A program made the position numbers and the translations under genes. A stretch of DNA of 64,000 bases, from contig CAWEPZ010000008.1 in NCBI GenBank assembly GCA_963811105.1, forward strand, positions 7,672 through 71,671, given 5' to 3'. The notes under the pieces were generated by a model that was not told where the DNA came from, searched no databases, and worked only from the letters and a program-made list of their open reading frames with translations. Shown one piece after another: positions 25,738-36,437 of the stretch. Positions within the stretch are counted from its first letter, which is position 1. Each line of letters begins with the position of its first letter. This DNA is from Candidatus Bathyarchaeota archaeon. Its GTDB lineage: Archaea > Thermoproteota > Bathyarchaeia > Bathyarchaeales > Bathycorpusculaceae.

Positions 25738-26670
25738 TTAGAATTTGTGAATCCATGGAAGAAGTTGCTGTGCATTCTCTGGTTTTTCTGTAAGAGGCAA
25801 TTGCAAGTAAGCGCCGTGCCTATTGAAGTATGGTGCGCCTTTCCTTGAAAACAGAGTTAAAACTCTGCCGTGATGGTTAATTTTGAAGCCCTCCTCGCTT
25901 GATTCATGACCCCGGATAAGGATTTTAGCGTTCAAATTCCCAAGAACCTCCTCGGTTACTTTTCTTCCAAAAAGCTTTCCGGCACCCCTCGGCGAAGCTG
26001 AGACGCCCTGCAAACGCTCCTTTGGGTCGCTCCAAAGCAAATCTTCAAGCAAAGCTTCGTTTTGTTTTTCTTGAGCTTGGGCAATATCTTGGAGATTATT
26101 GATTTCTGGCGACACGCCACCGTGAACCATCAAGTAGCGATCCTTAACGAACAAGGCGTTATAGAAATAAGCCCACAAAGATTGGATCTTCTCGTAGGCT
26201 ATCTCCCAGTCTTCGCCAAACCTGTTTTGGAATTGAAAAGGCAAATCATGTGGTTCACCTATCAGATTTTTTGGGGCTTCATGGTTCCCCCGCAACAGAA
26301 TTACTTGTTTTGGAAAAACAAGCTTAAGCTTCAAAACTGCATAGTAGACTTCAGCAGATTTTATGCCTCGGTCTCCATAGTCGCCTAAGAATATCAGTGT
26401 GGCATCCTCATTTTTCTCCATTACCTCTAAAAAATGGCTTTCTTGAAGGATAATTACTAAACTTTCTAAATCTCCATGTAAATCGCCAACGACTAATGCT
26501 TCGCCTAACGGTTCAAGTGTAACTAAACGATTCACAATTGTTAGATTGCCCACTTGCCCAGTTTCGTCCCGCAACAGGGATGTGACTGTTTCAACTGATT
26601 TGATGAATACATCGCTTGGAGCCCCTAATGCTTCTCCAATAAGTGAAGACAAATCCAAAGGACGCGCCAC
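25738..26670 (-). CDS. PPP-family Ser/Thr protein phosphatase
   Basis: GDLHG, GDYGDRG, RGNHE, HGG, DLLWSDP, RGHE motifs. Confidence 0.92.
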   Translation of the reverse strand: MARPLDLSSLIGEALGAPSDVFIKSVETVTSLLRDETGQVGNLTIVNRLVTLEPLGEALVVGDLHGDLESLVIILQESHFLEVMEKNEDATLIFLGDYGDRGIKSAEVYYAVLKLKLVFPKQVILLRGNHEAPKNLIGEPHDLPFQFQNRFGEDWEIAYEKIQSLWAYFYNALFVKDRYLMVHGGVSPEINNLQDIAQAQEKQNEALLEDLLWSDPKERLQGVSASPRGAGKLFGRKVTEEVLGNLNAKILIRGHESSEEGFKINHHGRVLTLFSRKGAPYFNRHGAYLQLPLTEKPENAQQLLPWIHKF

Positions 26671-27923
26671 TACGATATTTGAACTTTAATGTTAATTGAA
26701 TTAAGTATGTTTCTTTCAATGGATCGCTTTAGACTAGTGATTTTGTCAACTGCGTCATCATAGGAGTTTTCCTTAACAGTTTCATGCGTTTCGATACTTG
26801 TTTTCCTGGCTTTAAGCAAGTCAACCTGTTCTTGAAAAGTGTTGAGACTTTGCTTTATCTCGTCCATTTTCGCAGAAGCAATCAGCAATTCCTTTGTGTT
26901 TGCCATTTCCTTGCTTCTGATTTGGAGCTTCGCAAGCGAGTTTTGTTTTAGAATTTCCTTTATTGACTGCTCAGCTTTGCGTGCTTTATCCTGTTTTAGT
27001 TTCAATTTGTCTTCTGCAATTAAACCTTCAAGCTTCTGCAAAATCTCTTTTAGCAATGGGTAATCGTCTAGTTCGCTTGTTAGCGCTTCGAAAGGTGTCT
27101 CTAAATAATGGTTGACTTTGCTGAGCTCATCTGGAGTTACTCCTGCTCCGCCTCCCGATATAGCTAATGCTTGCATTTTAATGAAGGGTTTTTGCAGATG
27201 CCTAAGCGAATATTTCAATTCGTTGCTTAATGTGTCTATTTCAGCATTAACCATGTTTAGCTTATCAATTGGTCCTTTGTTTTTTAATTCATAAATTCTT
27301 AATTCCAATTCAGCGATATCTCTCTCTACAGGCAAGCGCTCATTCTTTATTTGTTCTTTTTCCTGACCGATGACCTCAAGTTGCTTTTGCACATTTTGTA
27401 GCTCGTTCAGTTGCTGTAAAGCTTCTTCCAAAGTTTTAGTTTTGACGTACTCTTTAGTTAAGAATTCGTTTAACGATTGATTTGCTACCTTAGCCCTTTC
27501 ATATATTGCTAAGAACTTTCTTCTGTCCATGATGAAGAAGGGTGAAATTCGAGGAAACCAATTCTTGATGTCGATATCCATGACTAACATTACCTTTTGA
27601 ATTTCTTGAACATACCTGCTTAGTGTGTCATAACTGATTTCATCAGGCGTCGCAATCTTTTTGAGACGGTCAAGAAACAAATGTGAAAGCTTGTTGAGGG
27701 CTCTGGCCCGATTATAAACTTTCATATTTCTTTTTTCGATTTCTCGTGTGCTGTTATCTAAAAGGATCTTGCTGATGTCGCCAACGCCTTGAAGCGCCAT
27801 GTTCATGTCATCTCTTAGTTTTTTGGCTTGGGCGTGTACAGGCGAGAGGATGGAGCTTGTTTGGTTTTCAAGCCAGCGTTTAACCTCGCTTGTATTGGAG
27901 AACTGAATTGCTTCCGTCAACAT
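26670..27923 (-). CDS. Long coiled-coil protein
   Basis: 417 aa rich in L/E/K/Q heptads; its stop codon overlaps the phosphatase start. Confidence 0.75.
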   Translation of the reverse strand: MLTEAIQFSNTSEVKRWLENQTSSILSPVHAQAKKLRDDMNMALQGVGDISKILLDNSTREIEKRNMKVYNRARALNKLSHLFLDRLKKIATPDEISYDTLSRYVQEIQKVMLVMDIDIKNWFPRISPFFIMDRRKFLAIYERAKVANQSLNEFLTKEYVKTKTLEEALQQLNELQNVQKQLEVIGQEKEQIKNERLPVERDIAELELRIYELKNKGPIDKLNMVNAEIDTLSNELKYSLRHLQKPFIKMQALAISGGGAGVTPDELSKVNHYLETPFEALTSELDDYPLLKEILQKLEGLIAEDKLKLKQDKARKAEQSIKEILKQNSLAKLQIRSKEMANTKELLIASAKMDEIKQSLNTFQEQVDLLKARKTSIETHETVKENSYDDAVDKITSLKRSIERNILNSINIKVQIS

Positions 27924-28036: not shown

Positions 28037-28657
28037 ATGAAACAACCGAGAAGGGAACTATTATTGAACGCAAAAAAATTGGCATTTATAGTGATGATGG
28101 GAGCACTTGGTAATGTCCTATTTGCAGTCAGTTACTTTGCAGGACCAATAGCTCCTGGAATAGCTCTGGATTTCTCATTAATGGCTGTATTCATAGCCGG
28201 TTTTTTCGTGGGACCCACCGAAGGCATAGTCACAGGAGTTATCGCAGGAATATTGCCTGGGATAATGTTTGGGCCAGCAGGAACAGGCGGATGGTTAGGA
28301 CTCATTGGCTTACCGCTCGGAAAAGCCCTAACAGGCTTAACAGCTGGGTTAGTCGGAAAAAGCATAAACTTGCAAAAACCGCGCTTTTCCCTTCTCGGAA
28401 TTCCGCTGACTTTAGCGGCATATATTCCAGAAGCAATATTCACTTATGCCTACTTTGCGTTTTTACTTCCGCTATTCATACCTACCCAGCTACTTGGAAA
28501 CGCAGTCATAATCACTATCTTGATAAAAGCGGTCGGTGAAGTGCTCATAATGGGCTTCGTAATAGCGGCATTGCTCGGAAACAAAGGCTTCAATAGTTTC
28601 ATCCATTCATTTTTCGGTAAGCCACAAAAAACACTAACAAATGTGACTGCCCCATAA
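28037..28657 (+). CDS. ECF transporter substrate-binding S component
   Basis: Six hydrophobic segments; AFIVMMGAL and LDFS..AVFIAGFFVGP..G..TG pattern of S components. Confidence 0.8.
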   Translation: MKQPRRELLLNAKKLAFIVMMGALGNVLFAVSYFAGPIAPGIALDFSLMAVFIAGFFVGPTEGIVTGVIAGILPGIMFGPAGTGGWLGLIGLPLGKALTGLTAGLVGKSINLQKPRFSLLGIPLTLAAYIPEAIFTYAYFAFLLPLFIPTQLLGNAVIITILIKAVGEVLIMGFVIAALLGNKGFNSFIHSFFGKPQKTLTNVTAP

Positions 28658-28682
28658 AACGTTTTTTTTAACGAAAAGAAAT

Positions 28683-29642
28683 TTAGAATCCTAAGGATTG
28701 CGCTAGCACCTTAGGGTTGATTTGTCCTGCTTTGAAGGTTCTTCCAGTTTTAGCATTGTTAATTATTAGTATTGCTGGGGCGAATAAGCCGTGGTCTATT
28801 TTGTAGAAGTCTTTGTCTGCTTCTCGGAAAATCTGCAGGAATGGTTTACCGTAATCTTTTGAAGCCATTGATGGCGCCTGCTGCATAATATTTTGCAGAG
28901 CTGCTTCATCATCATGGTCAACTGTGCAGTACACTGTTCCTCCGTAGAGGATGGCGTCGTTTGTTCGTGCCATTGCAACTTCAAAATCTGTCCCCAGCGG
29001 CGGGATAGGTGCATATCCAAACGCGTGACGGATAACCTTGGGGCTTAAGCCAAGAGTACGAAGCTTATGAATACCTACTTCAACTACTCTTCCAGCAACC
29101 TGAGTTAATCCAGCAATACTTGCGGTTGGAGCAACAACGATAATTAGGTTTTCTGTTTTGATATTGCTTGCAATTGTCACTTTTTCAATTAGCACATCTG
29201 AGGGCAAAGTGTTGCTTTCCAAAGTAAGCACCGCTTTGTCGCTTTGATCTCTGTAGCCAATTTCCTCAAAAATGTCTTTAGGCTTCAGGGCCAAGGCGCG
29301 AACTGGGCCTGACCCGATAGCTATTTGGTCACCGTCTTTTATGCGCCAGCCAGCAAACTGAGAGCCTAACGCTGCAATCGCCGGGTGATCTGTGCTGACA
29401 GTGATTGATGGGAAGGTTAAGTCGCCGTAGGATTTGAATCCAAGTTGAGCTTTTCCAACGCCTCCCATGCAGAGTTCGGTTAGTTTTTTGCCTGCTTGAA
29501 AGCCTCCGGGAGCCTTGACTCCCGCGTCGATTACGGTGGCTCCAGCAGTTGATTTTGAGACTGTTACACCGTAAAATTCTGGGTTATCGATAAGTTTTTG
29601 GGCTATTTTCCAAGCCATTTGGTTTACGCTTAACGTAGCCAT
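28683..29642 (-). CDS. mch: Methenyltetrahydromethanopterin cyclohydrolase
   Basis: TELCMGG, TDHPAIAALGSQFAGW, GSGPVRALALKP, RTNDAILYGG, DFYKID..LFAPA. Confidence 0.95.
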   Translation of the reverse strand: MATLSVNQMAWKIAQKLIDNPEFYGVTVSKSTAGATVIDAGVKAPGGFQAGKKLTELCMGGVGKAQLGFKSYGDLTFPSITVSTDHPAIAALGSQFAGWRIKDGDQIAIGSGPVRALALKPKDIFEEIGYRDQSDKAVLTLESNTLPSDVLIEKVTIASNIKTENLIIVVAPTASIAGLTQVAGRVVEVGIHKLRTLGLSPKVIRHAFGYAPIPPLGTDFEVAMARTNDAILYGGTVYCTVDHDDEAALQNIMQQAPSMASKDYGKPFLQIFREADKDFYKIDHGLFAPAILIINNAKTGRTFKAGQINPKVLAQSLGF

Positions 29643-29714
29643 GACTTTTCACTTCATCTAGCGTATTGTTGATTTGTTTTTTCATATTAACTTAACGCTG
29701 AAAATGCTCAAGTG

Positions 29715-30662
29715 CTACGGTCTGTATCCGTTAAGAGTGCAAAGCGCCAAAGCTGCTGCCGTCAAATCCGCGGTAGTCCCAGGATTACACTTGTTTTGGG
29801 ATAAACGCAGTTTCTTATCGAGCTCTTTGAGAGTTTTTGTACCTTCTTCGGTTTCTAAACCACCAAGCTCTAAAACAGCCTTTGCCTCCTGTGACACTTC
29901 TTGCGCTTTTTTGATGCCGACTTTTCTTGCTATGAAGGTGTCAGGGCGATTTGACAGAATTTTTAGGAAAGAGTGAACGACGGCAGTGTTAAAAGGCTTA
30001 GTTTTTAGCTGTTCAGTAAGGTATGGGTAGGCTAAATCGAAGGTTATGGGATAATTGTTTATCCATTCATAGCAGATGTCATCGTAGTTTTCGCCGATTT
30101 TGAAAACCTCAAACAAAGTGACGTTATCTCGCATCAAGAGTTCTTTGGAAGCGGGGTCGGTTACATCAAGTTCAATCGATTTGTTAAGACCACTCGGACT
30201 AGCTATATCTACTGCCTCATAGAGGTGTACGGAATCCCAAGCGGTTGTTGCTCTAATGACAAGATCAATATTTTTGCGCAATTGAGAGAAGTCGAAGCTT
30301 TCATTTTTTTTGGTTAGTGTCATTCCTGCGGCGACAGCAATTGGCATAAACAGCATTATGGTGCCGAGAATCGTGTTTCCACCCCTCTGCCAATCGTTAA
30401 CGTCGCTCGCGCAGGTTTTGACAAGTTGACCCAGACCTACTTCACCGATACCAAGCTTGTTTTTGGCCACTAAAGCTCCTCGAATTGCCGCTTCTTGGAT
30501 AGTTGTCCCTGCAGCAATGGCTGAAGCCAAAAAATGTTGGCACGTTGTCTTCTCAAAACTCGATGTTAGATTGACGTTACCGGGCTTTTCTGCACTGACC
30601 TCTAAGAGTATAGCCAATTGGAGGCATTTTGAGATGTGTTGTGCTTTTTCTTGGTTACTCAT
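29715..30662 (-). CDS. citG: Triphosphoribosyl-dephospho-CoA synthase-like protein (CitG/MdcB family; archaeal Orf7 type)
   Basis: LLEVSAEKPGNV, GGNTILG, PDTFIARKVG, NPGTTADL; start taken at MSNQEK (ATG 30662). Confidence 0.85.
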   Translation of the reverse strand: MSNQEKAQHISKCLQLAILLEVSAEKPGNVNLTSSFEKTTCQHFLASAIAAGTTIQEAAIRGALVAKNKLGIGEVGLGQLVKTCASDVNDWQRGGNTILGTIMLFMPIAVAAGMTLTKKNESFDFSQLRKNIDLVIRATTAWDSVHLYEAVDIASPSGLNKSIELDVTDPASKELLMRDNVTLFEVFKIGENYDDICYEWINNYPITFDLAYPYLTEQLKTKPFNTAVVHSFLKILSNRPDTFIARKVGIKKAQEVSQEAKAVLELGGLETEEGTKTLKELDKKLRLSQNKCNPGTTADLTAAALALCTLNGYRP

Positions 30663-30758
30663 AGTTCTACGTGTAAAGTGGTTTAAAGAAGGTTTATTAA
30701 ACTTTGCAAAAAAGTACAAGCATTCGAAAAACACATAGATTAGACTTGAGGGATAAGT

Positions 30759-31778
30759 TTGAAGGCTCGTGAAGGCGACTTAATCAAAACAAAGAGTAAT
30801 GTGGTTTTTGACGTTAAAGGTTTAGTTCACCCCGCAGACAAAATTATTGCTTTTCCCCGCTTTATTCCTTCACCGATGGGTACCAGAAGGGGTGATAACG
30901 GTGCCTATGGCAAAGTCTACAACCTCGGTGACAGGTTCAAGTATCTGCAAGAAAACCAGCCTGATCTCATCGTTTTTGACCCTGTCTTCGGCGAAACAAT
31001 GTGCGAAGTCCCAGTTACAGATATAGCTGAGCAGTATAAACCTGAAGAAAAACTTTGGTCGCTGCGTTCATCCAAAGATCTTACGGTTTTGGAGAACAAG
31101 GCTTTGCAGCTGGCTGAACTCCTGAAGGTAGAGGCCGCCATTCCCTGGAGCAGCATTGGGATTTCTGGGTCGATCATGGCGGGTTTAACTACTGATAAAT
31201 CAGACATTGATCCATTAATTTATGGGGTGGAGAACTGTCGAAAAGCCTACGCTGCACTGCAGGAGTTGCTGGGGAAGTCGGATTCTGGGTTCAAACCTTA
31301 CAGCCGAGAAGAACTTGTGGAACTTTTCGATTTTCGTTCGAAAGACACACAAATGAGCTTAGAAGACTTCGTTTTAGTCGAAAGTCGCAAGGCGTTTCAA
31401 GGCAAATTCATGGGAACTGACTATTTTATTCGTTTCGTGAAGGAATGGAACGAAATAAACGAACATTATGGGGATGTGTGGTTCAAGAACAGTGGCTATG
31501 CAAAAGTAACCGCCAAAATAGCCGATGCCACCGACTCGCTTTTCACTCCGTGCACCTACAAGCTTCAAGATGTCCGAGTTGTTGAAGGACCCAAATTGGC
31601 CCCAATAACTGAAATTGTTTCTTTCCGCGGCAGGTTCTGTGAGCAAGCAGCAAACGGCGAAGCGGTTGAGGCTCAGGGAAAAGTTGAATTAGTAACCAAC
31701 AGGAAAATGGGCTGCGAATATTTCCGTTTGATATTGGGCAATAAGCCGTCGGATTATTTGGTTCTTTCACATGGTTAA
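30759..31778 (+). CDS. Pol-beta-superfamily nucleotidyltransferase, paralogue A
   Basis: GISGSIMAGLTTDKSDID (GS..DxD); C-terminal OB-like segment SFRGRFCEQA..GE.VEAQGKVE. Confidence 0.85.
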   Translation: MKAREGDLIKTKSNVVFDVKGLVHPADKIIAFPRFIPSPMGTRRGDNGAYGKVYNLGDRFKYLQENQPDLIVFDPVFGETMCEVPVTDIAEQYKPEEKLWSLRSSKDLTVLENKALQLAELLKVEAAIPWSSIGISGSIMAGLTTDKSDIDPLIYGVENCRKAYAALQELLGKSDSGFKPYSREELVELFDFRSKDTQMSLEDFVLVESRKAFQGKFMGTDYFIRFVKEWNEINEHYGDVWFKNSGYAKVTAKIADATDSLFTPCTYKLQDVRVVEGPKLAPITEIVSFRGRFCEQAANGEAVEAQGKVELVTNRKMGCEYFRLILGNKPSDYLVLSHG

Positions 31779-32848
31779 TGCTGCACTTTGAGGACTTGTT
31801 CGTAGTAGCGTGGACAGTAGGTTAAGGTAATCTGGTAGCATGTTTCTCTTGGTGTTGTGACTTCTTCAAGGTTGCCTTCAACAATTATGACTTCGTCTTT
31901 TTGGGCTTGCTGGCGGAACTCTTCCATGAAAGAGATAACCCGCCGTGCCTGAAGTCCAACTGGGTCACCGCTTAAAACTTCCAAGGCTTTGATGCCGTAA
32001 ATTGATGGAATAAAGGGTGCTTCACCGTCCGACGTGACTTTGGCTTTTAGTTTTATCCAGCCTTTAGATGTAATTTTCGTTTTTGGGTCGTATTCAGATT
32101 TAATTTCGCCCCAAGCCTTCACCGGTTCAAACTCAGCTTTGATAGTTCTGCCGCTGGCTTTATCATCATATAACCCGTAGATTTGTTTTCTTCGCTGATG
32201 CCAAACAAAGTCTTCAGTAGTGAAGTTTTTAAACCGCCAATCCTTACCCGCCATGGCTTTATCTGATTCAAACTCGTTAGTCAAACACGAACGCTTATCA
32301 GCATACAAGGCTTCAAGCGCTTTTCGCATTTTGCAATTTTCATTTTTGCCATAAACCACAAGATCGATATCTGAGAATTTTGGGTGATGAAAACCATGCA
32401 ACATGGAGCCGAAAACTCCGAAGTTTGAAGTTTTTAACCCTGATTTTTTGGTTACTTTATCAAGCACTTTTTGCATTGCTAAGATGAGTTCATCTTTTGA
32501 TTCAGTTCTAATTATTTCTTGCAATCTTTCTTCTGGTTTTCTTGTTTGCGCGATTTCAGCTTCATTTATGCCAATAACTTTTCGGCGCAGCATGTCGTGA
32601 TAAACGGTGTATTTTTGGAAAGAGTTGGCAATTAGTTTCCATCCTTCATCGTTATAGAATTTGTAGAAGATTTTGTTTCTGCCTGTTCTTTGCGCTCGAG
32701 CGTCATTTGAGGTGAAAATGTTTGAAGAGGCATATTCAGCATCACAAATGTATGCTTGTGGCGGGTGAGAGTATCCAAAGACGCGGAAAATCAAGCCTTC
32801 ACTCGTCTCTATACCGTCTCGGTCACGCAGTTTTATGCTATTGGCCAT
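31775..32848 (-). CDS. Nucleotidyltransferase, paralogue B
   Basis: GVFGSMLHGFHHPKFSDID; same architecture as paralogue A. Confidence 0.85.
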   Translation of the reverse strand: MANSIKLRDRDGIETSEGLIFRVFGYSHPPQAYICDAEYASSNIFTSNDARAQRTGRNKIFYKFYNDEGWKLIANSFQKYTVYHDMLRRKVIGINEAEIAQTRKPEERLQEIIRTESKDELILAMQKVLDKVTKKSGLKTSNFGVFGSMLHGFHHPKFSDIDLVVYGKNENCKMRKALEALYADKRSCLTNEFESDKAMAGKDWRFKNFTTEDFVWHQRRKQIYGLYDDKASGRTIKAEFEPVKAWGEIKSEYDPKTKITSKGWIKLKAKVTSDGEAPFIPSIYGIKALEVLSGDPVGLQARRVISFMEEFRQQAQKDEVIIVEGNLEEVTTPRETCYQITLTYCPRYYEQVLKVQH

Positions 32849-33870
32849 ATGTATTCTTCCTCTGATGTTGCTGTTCCAACAACCACTTGATAATAAACTT
32901 CATCTGAAGTTGTTGATTCCACTCGTTCCAGTTTGCCCGCGACTTTAATCTCGCTTCCTTTGCGGGCTATGTTTCTGTAGCAGCCTATATTTGAAACAAC
33001 CTGAACTGGAATTTTGTCTAAATCAAGCTCTGACTGCTCATCTTGCGGTTTGTAGCCTGAAATCTTGTATATAGCTGGACGATACATAGTTTCAGTATCA
33101 TCGCAAACAGTTGCTTGGAATCGCACCGGGTCAAGCGGAATATAGCGGTAGGCTCCATATTTCTCCTTGACTTGTTCAGTTTTTTTGGTAGCGTTATACA
33201 TGAAGATTTTGCCCAGGTATTTTCCCTGGAATTTTCTTGCAGCTTCCAACCGGTTGCCGATAATGTAACTTAATTTTGCAGTAGTTAACAAGCCTGGCTA
33301 TAGCCTCTTCCACTAAACGGAAGTTTTCTGTGCCGTAAATAACGAAATCTATGTCTGATTCTGGTGCATGCATGTTCAAGGCGATGGAACCGTGGACTCC
33401 AAAATCTCTTAAATAGTATGTCCTGATTCCTTTGATATTAAATGAATTAGGCTCAGAGCCATTTGTTGGAGTTTGTCTTTTTTTGGCAGGTTTTGCAGCC
33501 AGACCAAGCGGTCTTTGGGAACAAAAACCTGCTGGATTAATTCGAGGGGTGCAGTGATTAATTCTTTGTTTCGGTAGGGGCAGAAGTAAAGGTAATCGGG
33601 AAAGTTTTTGCGGAAAGCTTCAATAAAAGTCTGGTAGTTTTTTGCAGTGTAGAGTTTTTCTGCTCTGAAAAGCTGGTTATCGCCAAACGTCCAGGTTCTC
33701 TCCAACATTTCAACGTCAAAAAGCTCCTTGTATTTGGCTGGGATATATTTGAGGAATGCGAAAACGCGGTCGTCTGGATGCTCGTACCCAAAAGTGTTGA
33801 GTATAAAGCCATCTTTGGTTACGAAGGTGTCTCCATCCATTGGAACCCAGATATCTTCAGTTATATTCAT
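32833..33870 (-). CDS. Nucleotidyltransferase, paralogue C; two indels (about 33420 and 33285)
   Basis: Three consecutive ORF pieces join into one protein with [19 protein letters not shown] and C-terminal [18 protein letters not shown]. Confidence 0.8.
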
Positions 33871-35416: not shown

Positions 35417-36437
35417 TCACATTTCAGCACTTAAAGCCTCAAGCAAAATCGTCAACTCTTTCGCTCTCTTACTGTCTTTGAGCAGCAAATTGCTTGCCAA
35501 TTCATTTTCACCAAGTTTCCGTAATTCAGCTTTTAGTTTTTGAACTTCAATGGAGTTTAATGTAGTTTTAGCGATGAATTTTAGATTTTTAGATGAAATC
35601 CTGTTTTCTTTGACAAATGGGAGAAATTGTTCTTTTATTTTCGGGTTTTGTAGTGCATAAAGCATGGGGTATGGGGGTAGTTCATTTTTGATTCTGTGTG
35701 CAAGTTCAGAGGGGGTCACAAGGTCAACAAATTCTTCCTTCAACGTTGACAATATCCCAATTAATCGACCATAATTAGTCAAATCCTCAATCATCTTCTC
35801 GTCTGCACCAGCAAAAACCCCGCCAATTCTGCAGTGAAGCCCAGCTATAACCCCTTTTAGCCTAATTACCTTAAAATATTCCTCGGGTGTTACATCTGCT
35901 TTCTTCCATAATTCTACTTCCACAGATTCTGCCTTGATTATTTCAGTCATTGATTTTAGAACAAAAGCTGTGACTACCTTTTTCTGATCATTTGTTAAGG
36001 ATTCGCAGTTTTGTAGTGCTACAGTGCCTTCGAAGTAGTAAGGTGTCGCCTGCGAGAAGAGCAACATCTCTACCATATTTACCGAAAATGGTTTTTGTTT
36101 CGAATTTCTCAATCGAATTGTCAATGATGTCATCGTGGATGTCTCCTGCTGCGGTCATCAGCATCATGGCAGTGGCCAAAGGTTTTGTTTTTTCAGGGTT
36201 TCCTCCTCCGGCTTTGCAGGAGAGATACAAAAGGGCTGGGAAAATCGGCAATACATTTGGCAAAATTTCTGTAGCATAATAATTTAGTGCATTGGAGATT
36301 GTTCCCTTGGCTTCTTGACCCTCACGAATCTTTTTGGAAGCTGCATCTAACACAGATTTGCCTCTGTGGTTAATAATTTCCAGAGCTTTTTCTGTTAGCG
36401 AGTAGGGTTTCATATCTTTACCGTGTCGGGTTTGCAT
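35417..36437 (-). CDS. Polyprenyl-synthase-fold prenyltransferase (ComQ-like); indel near 36035
   Basis: FARM DIHDDIID intact, ALLAGD.L conserved; GKRxRP, post-FARM RRG and SARM DDxxD absent (SARM reads LKEEFVD); alternative start at 36413. Confidence 0.82.

Follow-up and report, generated by a model that had tools for sequence, protein, structure and literature searches.

A CitG-like gene and three nucleotidyltransferase genes near mch in a soil archaeon as candidates for methanopterin side-chain synthesis

In a soil archaeon of the Bathyarchaeia, a gene of the one-carbon metabolism (mch) is located together with a CitG-like gene and three genes encoding nucleotidyltransferases (NTases A, B and C). 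The NTases belong to an undescribed archaeal family, and gene content and gene order make it quite likely that this family acts in the synthesis of a methanopterin-type cofactor. With a probability of roughly 60%, the locus represents the tail half of this biosynthesis, in which a ribosylation by the CitG-like protein would be followed by the closure of the phosphodiester by an NTase. Methanopterin is the central one-carbon carrier in methanogens, methane-oxidising archaea and many other archaea. To our knowledge, no enzymes have been assigned to the second-ribose and phosphate-hydroxyglutarate steps of its synthesis, and none of the papers covered by searches on methanopterin biosynthesis, CitG and nucleotidyltransferase makes this assignment. 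An inventory from 2011 counted about seven proteins of the pathway as still unknown (PMC3087415). The conserved and widespread gene pair described here provides testable candidates for the side-chain steps.

Arrangement and identity of the genes

Within the window, i.e. the whole analysed stretch of 64,000 nucleotides, the row of six genes described in an earlier note on this DNA could be confirmed gene by gene: a gene for an ECF-type S-component-like membrane protein (28037..28657, + strand, 206 aa), mch (28683..29642, - strand, 319 aa), the CitG-like gene (29715..30734, - strand), NTase A (30759..31778, + strand, 339 aa), NTase B (31775..32848, - strand, 357 aa) and NTase C (32833..33870, - strand). 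The CitG-like gene precedes mch in the same reading direction, with a gap of 72 nt, and is divergent to NTase A. NTases A and B are convergent with an overlap of 4 nt, the end of NTase C overlaps the start of NTase B by 16 nt, and the ECF-S-like gene is convergent with mch. A block of NTases C, B and A and the CitG-like gene was found less than 10 kb away from mch in 27-31 of the 47 Bathyarchaeia loci with full flanks. Since this block recurs near mch across the Bathyarchaeia loci, the arrangement is not due to chance. The mch-based scan for related loci gave matches solely from Bathyarchaeia, methanogens and methylotrophs being outside its sample. In the order of the source genome, the most conserved neighbour of mch is a gene for a coiled-coil protein without enzymatic signature, which indicates that a part of the local gene order was simply inherited. 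Because this gene is kept even better beside mch, adjacency to mch alone was rejected as strong evidence.

The identification of mch as methenyl-tetrahydromethanopterin cyclohydrolase is based on PF02289 (393.7 bits) and, at the equivalog level, on TIGR03120 (379.8 bits compared to a cut-off of 228.8). For the solitary ECF-S-like protein, the model ECF_trnsprt (PF12822) aligned at positions 1-165 of 169 with 23.7 bits, which is below the cut-off of 30.7. A sub-threshold match over the full length was also obtained for two divergent orthologues, and the Atlas features search placed the protein in the ECF S-component family with a value of 0.93. Two EcfT genes (PF02361) are located elsewhere on contig C2. 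A PF12822-like gene keeps the same position across the order of the source genome; this conservation concerns the position only and is confined to that order, and the copy of the closest relatives showed just 29% identity over 77 aa. Accordingly, salvage of a precursor by this S component, as suggested in the earlier note, is not supported.

The CitG-like protein matched PF01874 over the full length of the model (positions 2-283 of 284) with 222.4 bits. Since the match begins at residue 36, translation probably starts close to 30662, which would give a protein of about 315 aa; the orthologue of a relative (locus L018) comprises 315 aa. The equivalog models for CitG/MdcB (TIGR03125, TIGR03132 and NF002315) reached 43-56 bits compared to cut-offs of 272-282, with the C-terminal third alone being aligned, and by this measure the protein is not a CitG/MdcB equivalog. 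CitG and MdcB (EC 2.4.2.52) are ATP-dependent enzymes which displace adenine and put the alpha-ribosyl 5-triphosphate onto dephospho-CoA. Neither the citrate-lyase ACP CitD (PF06857) nor CitX (PF03802) or MdcG (PF10620) was found in the source genome, which is 96.65% complete, so that the classical role of CitG is not available in this organism.

Contrary to the assumption of the earlier note that all three NTases are intact genes, NTase C is frameshifted and divided into three frames in the assembly (33409-33870, 33293-33406 and 32833-33291). The frame is interrupted near 33407-33424 and again near 33283-33292. With X inserted at these two points, the continuous translation showed 88% identity over the full length to an intact orthologue of 343 aa (L018:5221-6252). 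Short-read contigs of related strains contain one base fewer at 33283/4 and two fewer at 33414 and 33423/4. The continuity of the relatives and the short-read contigs across both breaks points either to a mistake in the assembly or to a lesion of very recent origin. A true pseudogene is less likely than an assembly error, considering the high identity to the intact orthologue and the lack of any further lesion. Across the genus and family of the source genome, the NTase trio is intact. For the translationally coupled pair of NTases B and C of the L018 relative, a complex prediction gave a score of 0.00, which allows no verdict either way.

The nucleotidyltransferase family

NTases A, B and C share pairwise identities of 27-28%, and each of them retains G-x-x-GS ... 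SDIDxxxYG. NTase A carries the GS...DxD motif, and NTase B matched PF01909 above the cut-off with 28.4 bits. Among 122 diverse members of the family from all clades, 116 matched PF01909 at E<=1, and G137, S138, D149 and D151 as well as H24 and E310 were invariant. The AF2 model of NTase A (pLDDT 97) has a beta domain at its N-terminus, followed by the Pol-beta core and an OB-like barrel; the single-sequence AlphaFold model of NTase B had a pLDDT of 35, which is too low for use. With the G-S motif and the DxD carboxylates located on the core sheet, the NTases belong to the Pol-beta nucleotidyltransferase superfamily.

The family itself is covered neither by a Pfam model nor by a solved structure. 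PF03802 (CitX) and PF10620 (MdcG) gave no match at E<=1 among the 122 members, a sequence search of the PDB gave no match either, and fold searches of the PDB led to separate matches of the NTase core and the OB domain alone, with no full-length relative. Among the structural matches in the AFDB, the first one with a name and from beyond the family was an MdcG-type phosphoribosyl-dephospho-CoA transferase (E 3.3e-4, residues 1-219), the match being weak with TM values of 0.30/0.40. The C-terminal OB-like barrel is closest to nucleic-acid binders (Z ~8), which counts against a role in cofactor synthesis.

For NTase B, 1865 homologues were obtained, and those with a source name originate from Bathyarchaeia/Bathyarchaeota. 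NTase A falls into clade A, a widespread paralogue which pairs with CitG; every CitG-adjacent NTase from the other Bathyarchaeia families was placed in this clade with a support of 100. Clade B with NTase B likewise has a support of 100 and takes in one Hermodarchaeota protein, and NTase C belongs to clade C. Paralogues of the A-type and D-type occur as a pair in several phyla. Clades A, B and C/D are ancient and motif-intact paralogues, which Bathyarchaeia and Asgard relatives have retained jointly.

Association with CitG and pterin genes

Among 201 Bathyarchaeia, NTase, CitG and mch occurred together in 122 genomes, while none of them was found in 33 and the NTase alone in three. Exceptions were NTase and mch without CitG (19 genomes) and CitG and mch without NTase (8 genomes). 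A similar picture was obtained for 129 other Thermoproteota, each at least 90% complete: 44 contained NTase, CitG and RFAP synthase, 74 contained none of these, and 11 were mixed. Six other Thermoproteota with NTase and CitG showed weak RFAP-synthase matches only. Four archaeal control genomes carried a CitG-family gene, and these were also the four with RFAP synthase.

The genomic neighbourhoods are in line with this profile. The NTase adjoins the CitG-like gene in at least 12 families, namely in most of f1 and in f2, f4, f5, f6, f18, f24 and f28 of the Bathyarchaeia, and in f42, f51, f55 and f57 of the other Thermoproteota. In Vulcanisaeta, NTase and CitG overlap by 14 nt within a C1/methanopterin cluster, which runs from an MptE-like gene, FTR, Fwd subunits, MCH and a RimK ligase via NTase and CitG to ATP-grasp, MfnB and, further on, Fae and SHMT. 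An operon in Baldrarchaeia comprises DUF447, a GHMP gene (RFAP-synthase-like), DUF1464, a flavoprotein with Fer4, an MptH-like gene, MptA and NTases of the A-type and D-type. The same core gene set is found in the source genome in cluster C13; its pterin-core genes (MptA, HPPK, RFAP synthase, MptH-like, DUF447 and DUF1464) are on a contig other than that of the NTase locus. The NTase abuts the RFAP synthase in one further genome (G311) and is 4-5 kb away from it in two others (G043 and G011). A further link to pterin synthesis is given by the bacterial protein P0180, in which HPPK (137.7 bits) is fused to an NTase of the family. It is flanked by a flavoprotein and an MptH-like gene, and its genome carries a bacterial bL19 and a CitG-family gene.

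Taken together, the family lies in pterin clusters, shows synteny with CitG-like and pterin-core genes and is found in genomes along with mch, CitG and RFAP synthase. The lack of synteny and co-occurrence with H4MPT genes, which according to the earlier note would have spoken against its idea, was thus not observed. Counting against the cofactor reading, the NTase pair of Odinarchaeia is located beside Nop5/fibrillarin without C1 context. Furthermore, the islands of Vulcanisaeta and of locus L010 also contain methanofuran-type genes (MfnB, ATP-grasp_3), and the context by itself therefore cannot fully separate methanopterin from methanofuran.

Proposed reactions, alternatives and known systems

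The interpretation given in the earlier note is supported in part. Its core, the proposal that the CitG-like protein and the NTases build the ribosyl-phosphate and phosphodiester tail, is backed by synteny, co-occurrence and the HPPK-NTase fusion. The idea that the trio diversifies the tail is not supported: a single copy suffices in M. jannaschii, which leaves the need for three copies unexplained. By analogy, the CitG-like enzyme would use ATP, displace adenine and transfer an alpha-ribofuranosyl 5-triphosphate onto the aminophenyl-ribitol pterin intermediate at its terminal hydroxyl. An NTase, most likely the CitG-coupled one of clade A, would then act like CitX/MdcG, the hydroxyl of an acceptor, in methanogens (S)-2-hydroxyglutarate, attacking the alpha-phosphate while pyrophosphate leaves. 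The side chain would thereby receive its ribose-5-phosphate phosphodiester, and clades B and C/D may either partner with A or add other substituents. Gene identities, fold, synteny, co-occurrence and the fusion are observations, whereas the substrates, the sequence of the reactions and the way in which the paralogues share the work are what we infer; this specific mechanism, a CitG step followed by a CitX-like NTase, has in our estimation somewhat less than an even chance of being correct. ATP as donor is opposed by the cell-extract work of White from 1996, in which the ribosyl donor was reportedly PRPP. Doubtful is the far-reaching version in which the CitG-like protein and the NTases are the last enzymes of the methanopterin side chain with ATP as donor, and clades A, B and C/D each add a different phosphodiester-linked group, giving rise to undescribed methanopterin variants.

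A different step of methanopterin-type synthesis is conceivable for the NTases, which we regard as improbable. Similar to CofC, they could activate ribose-5-phosphate or a 2-phospho-hydroxy acid with an NMP (adenylylation or guanylylation), leaving the closure of the phosphodiester to a separate transferase, or they could act on another intermediate. The catalytic motifs, being those of a generic Pol-beta NTase, would be compatible with this, the pairing of A-type and D-type across phyla fits two successive nucleotidyl-type steps, and some genomes contain NTase and mch without CitG. However, the partner across phyla is specifically CitG, including overlapping reading frames, the triphosphoribosyl product brings its own leaving group, and no CofD-like transferase was present in the clusters examined.

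A role of the CitG-like protein and the NTases in protein modification, in which they would make a phosphoribosyl prosthetic group for a C1-pathway carrier protein not yet recognised as such, is very unlikely. The one function of CitG/MdcB with an NTase-fold partner that is known from experiments is holo-ACP synthesis, and the nearest named structural neighbour is of the MdcG type, but the genome is devoid of a CitD-type ACP, CitX and MdcG, the clusters examined have no recurrent gene for a small carrier protein, and the HPPK fusion together with the pterin-core gene context indicates a small-molecule pathway. An action on RNA or DNA (tailing, tRNA modification) unrelated to C1 cofactors, with the position explained by inherited gene order, is hardly credible. 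In its favour are the similarity of the NTase core and the OB-like barrel to poly(A)/terminal transferases and SSB/RPA domains, the location of the Odinarchaeia pair beside Nop5/fibrillarin, and the coiled-coil gene, which shows that part of the local synteny is shared ancestry. Against this, linkage to CitG or to pterin genes was seen repeatedly, in Bathyarchaeia, in several further families of Thermoproteota, in Vulcanisaeta, in Baldrarchaeia and in one bacterium, a fusion to HPPK exists, and the family is absent exactly where CitG and RFAP synthase are absent (74 of 129 genomes), which would be unexpected for a housekeeping RNA enzyme.

If the assignment to the tail half of methanopterin-type synthesis is true, several hundred sequence clusters at present labelled 'hypothetical' or 'nucleotidyltransferase domain-containing' would receive a name, the chemistry of CitG/CitX, so far one of protein prosthetic groups, would extend to small-molecule cofactors, and further targets for methanogen inhibitors may result.

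Methanocaldococcus jannaschii, which makes methanopterin/sarcinapterin, possesses a full-length homologue of the NTases in MJ1086 (Q58486, 340 aa; TM 0.90, 30% identity), which is present as a single copy, in contrast to the three paralogues described here. No function is recorded for Q58486, and the literature searched contained no paper on MJ1086, nor any on COG1665, the family to which the earlier note had likened the NTases. The cofactor form made by methylotrophs, dephospho-H4MPT, has no phosphodiester. In Methylomonas sp. DH-1 (AYM39_08540-08555), mch, an ATP-grasp glutamate ligase, a homologue of 'triphosphoribosyl-dephospho-CoA synthase' and Fae adjoin each other (PMC11533326). The earlier statement that a CitG homologue lies beside mch in methylotrophs is thereby borne out for this strain, and the link between CitG and mch extends beyond the archaea; no NTase is listed in this row, which would fit the cofactor made by these organisms. 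CofC and CofD of the F420 pathway also belong to an archaeal C1-cofactor synthesis in which a nucleotidyltransferase step prepares the phosphodiester between a hydroxy-acid unit and the core, but CofC is of the NTP_transf_3 fold family, activates with GTP and involves no CitG-type ribosyl transfer. Compared to the pairs CitG+CitX of citrate lyase and MdcB+MdcG of malonate decarboxylase, the proposed acceptors differ, a pterin intermediate taking the place of dephospho-CoA and a hydroxy acid that of an ACP serine, and the NTases bear an additional OB-like barrel and match neither PF03802 nor PF10620. Shared with these two pairs is a PF01874 enzyme with a Pol-beta-fold transferase, often encoded adjacently or in overlapping frames, and the predicted chemistry would be shared as well, with an ATP-derived alpha-ribosyl 5-triphosphate, attack on the alpha-phosphate and loss of pyrophosphate leading to a phosphodiester. 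In structure, the N-terminal two thirds of the NTase have an MdcG-type protein as their closest named match, albeit a weak one.

Gene row of the window and the breaks in NTase C

The row of six genes described in the earlier note was borne out at its exact coordinates by the ORF list and the HMM scans, within a Bathyarchaeia assembly of 3.49 Mb (15 contigs, 96.65% complete). It comprises genes for an ECF-S-like membrane protein (28037-28657, + strand; a full-length PF12822 match of 23.7 bits that stays below the cut-off), the cyclohydrolase Mch (28683-29642, - strand; TIGR03120 with 379.8 bits vs a cut-off of 228.8), a CitG-family protein (29715-30734, - strand; PF01874 with 222.4 bits) and the nucleotidyltransferases NTase A (30759-31778, + strand; GS...DxD motif), NTase B (31775-32848, - strand; PF01909 with 28.4 bits) and NTase C (32833-33870, - strand). 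Compared to cut-offs of 272-282 bits, the CitG/MdcB equivalog models reached 43-56 bits for the CitG-family protein. The three NTases share pairwise identities of 27-28%, and each keeps G-x-x-G-S ... S-D-I-D-x-x-x-Y-G.

While the row was thus confirmed, one of its paralogues is frameshifted: the reading frame of NTase C is broken near 33407-33424 and again near 33283-33292, so that the gene spans three frames. In every genome searched from the same genus and the same family the paralogues A, B and C are uninterrupted, and the NTase C orthologue of a close relative (L018) is a single ORF of 343 aa, to which the window copy with X at the breaks shows 88% identity over the whole length and no further lesion. 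Two independent runs gave short-read contigs of related strains, which have one base fewer at 33283/4 and two fewer at 33414 and 33423/4. Since these differences coincide exactly with the break points, the window copy carries three single-base insertions, and an assembly error is judged more likely than a recent pseudogene. A same-strand overlap of the ORFs 35417-36133 and 35988-36437 (- strand) resembles a second frame break. Along with the broken NTase C, it suggests that erroneous indels of a single base occur often in the assembly. Among the nearest public relatives, many assemblies consist of very long contigs.

The NTase family and its paralogues

The NTases belong to an undescribed family: in the HMM scans they were covered by no Pfam or NCBIfam family model, 116 of 122 members gave weak generic NTP_transf_2 or Polbeta matches at E<=1, and the CitX and MdcG models matched none of the 122 at the same threshold. 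When 1.84 billion cluster representatives were searched with a profile, 376 clusters matched at E<=1e-30. By source names, the family occurs in Bathyarchaeia, Vulcanisaeta, Odin-, Baldr-, Ran-, Hermod- and Jordarchaeal lineages, Methylarchaceae and a 'Euryarchaeota archaeon'.

The AlphaFold model based on the 122-sequence alignment is confident (pLDDT 97, pTM 0.92) and predicts a beta domain at the N-terminus, an NTase core of the Pol-beta type and an OB-like barrel at the C-terminus. Among solved structures none matched over the full length; NTase cores and OB domains matched separately. The sole full-length match in the Swiss-Prot models was MJ1086, an uncharacterised protein of M. jannaschii (TM 0.90, 30% identity), and in the AFDB clusters the first non-family neighbour to carry a name was a weakly matching MdcG-type phosphoribosyl-dephospho-CoA transferase (E 3.3e-4, TM 0.30/0.40). 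H24, G134, G137, S138, D149, D151, G156, G307 and E310 are invariant in all clades, and the motifs suggest that every paralogue is catalytically competent.

The trees separate clades A, B and C, each named after the window copy it holds, and a clade D as sister of C, with high support throughout. CitG-adjacent copies from other Bathyarchaeia families are all A-type, as are the Baldrarchaeia copy beside MptA and the first Odinarchaeia copy, while the second Asgard copies and the Vulcanisaeta copy adjoining CitG are D-type. By this distribution, the duplications are older than the split between these phyla. M. jannaschii holds one copy only. Another locus (L010:5806-10628) carries an ATP-grasp_3 gene followed by C-type and D-type NTases, a NikR-like gene and an A-type NTase; this trio lacks clade B and has CdhD and MtmB genes nearby.

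Linkage to CitG and to methanopterin genes

Almost every genome of the window's own family has the NTase trio adjoining its CitG-like gene, and in seven further Bathyarchaeia families (f2, f4, f5, f6, f18, f24, f28) a single A-type NTase follows or faces CitG. This arrangement extends to four families of other Thermoproteota (f42, f51, f55, f57). In Vulcanisaeta sp. JCM 14467, NTase and CitG overlap by 14 nt. Because citrate-lyase ACP, CitX and MdcG were not found in the window's genome, a classical CitG role is excluded there.

In Vulcanisaeta, the island runs MptE-like / FTR / formylmethanofuran dehydrogenase subunits / MCH / RimK-type ligase / NTase / CitG / ATP-grasp / MfnB / ... / Fae / SHMT. 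A Baldrarchaeia contig shows the order DUF447 / RFAP-synthase-type GHMP kinase / DUF1464 / flavoprotein+Fer4 / MptH-like pterin-binding protein / MptA / NTase / NTase. Its core gene set is also kept in the window's genome, where contig C13 holds it as a cluster of its own (MptA, HPPK, RFAP synthase with 225 bits, second GHMP protein, DUF1464, MptH-like, DUF447). Within this cluster (C13:66599-74000), the second GHMP-kinase paralogue directly follows RFAP synthase, with DUF1464 and DUF447 after it; the trio recurs in the Baldrarchaeia operon, and its members join the candidates for methanopterin steps that lack an assigned enzyme. RFAP synthase abuts the NTase in one genome (G311) and lies 4-5 kb from it in two others (G043, G011). 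In the bacterial protein P0180, HPPK (137.7 bits) is fused to an NTase of the same family; a flavoprotein and an MptH-like gene follow, and the genome has a CitG-family gene and encodes bL19, a bacterial ribosomal protein.

Among 201 Bathyarchaeia genomes, 122 hold NTase, CitG and mch and 33 hold none; the others comprise NTase+mch (19), NTase+CitG (8), CitG+mch (8), mch only (7), NTase only (3) and CitG only (1). For 129 other Thermoproteota genomes (>=90% complete; E<=1e-15), NTase, CitG and RFAP synthase were all present in 44, all absent in 74 and mixed in 11. Since related genomes are not independent, co-occurrence is judged family by family, and no p-value is drawn from it: whole families are all-or-none (e.g. 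f32 0/22, f36 0/15, f39 0/13 vs f38 7/7, f43 8/8, f45 7/7). In the control set of 14 genomes, the same four hold both CitG-family genes and RFAP synthase, these four being its only archaea.

The adjacency to mch by itself adds little. Within the taxonomic order of the window's genome, mch is followed by the opposite-strand S-component-like gene, a 417-aa coiled-coil-rich protein (26670-27923, - strand; no Pfam match, Atlas matches only to Bathyarchaeota hypotheticals), a calcineurin-like metallophosphoesterase (25738-26670, - strand; PF00149 with 85.8 bits) and an ABC ATPase, an arrangement that holds down to 56-59% mch identity. As the coiled-coil gene accompanies mch most constantly (42 of 47 full-flank loci), the local gene order is partly plain inheritance. 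The metallophosphoesterase keeps its distance of two genes to mch in loci with mch identities as low as 56%; since the methanopterin pathway requires a phosphatase to act ahead of ribosylation, this enzyme may speculatively be proposed for the step. The ECF S-component assignment of 28037-28657 is reasonable, and nothing was found that ties this gene to pterin salvage. It holds a fixed place between mch and the coiled-coil gene, and compared to the closest relatives (L011:10979-11560) it shows only 29% identity over 77 aa, at 83-89% for mch, while copies of more distant relatives reach 50-73%. These identities suggest that the allele was replaced or diverged very fast.

In a Methylomonas gene table (PMC11533326), mch forms a row with genes for a glutamate ligase, a CitG homologue and Fae, and a 2011 inventory counted about seven methanopterin proteins as still unknown (PMC3087415). 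Within the library covered, our literature search found no paper that assigns the side-chain steps or mentions MJ1086 or COG1665.

Proposed route to the methanopterin tail

The tail of methanopterin is an alpha-ribosyl-5-phosphate-hydroxyglutarate. Based on the established chemistry of CitG/MdcB and CitX/MdcG, the CitG-like enzyme would move the ribosyl 5-triphosphate of ATP onto the ribitol hydroxyl of a pterin intermediate with loss of adenine. The NTase would then let the hydroxyl of 2-hydroxyglutarate, or of a lineage-specific acceptor, attack the alpha-phosphate, releasing pyrophosphate. The product of this putative route would match the methanopterin tail. White's extract work of 1996 reportedly led to a PRPP-based scheme, unlike the ATP-based one proposed here. 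One genome encodes a 769-aa ORF (L112:1850-4159) with an N-terminal NTase of the same family fused to Peptidase_M20 and its dimerisation domain; M20 enzymes include carboxypeptidases that release glutamate, and the fusion may hint at tail processing.

The data establish the CitG-NTase gene partnership and its pathway context, along with the fold and the conserved catalytic motifs of the NTases. The tail-building interpretation in the earlier note is supported in part. The link of the NTase family to methanopterin is strong (probability of about 80%), carried by the CitG/pterin synteny, the HPPK fusion and the co-occurrence. The specific chemistry, ribosyl transfer by the CitG-like protein and a subsequent phosphodiester step by the NTase, is plausible by analogy, at slightly less than even odds. 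Compared to the known systems, the CitG/CitX logic would here be applied to a small-molecule cofactor with an undescribed NTase family.
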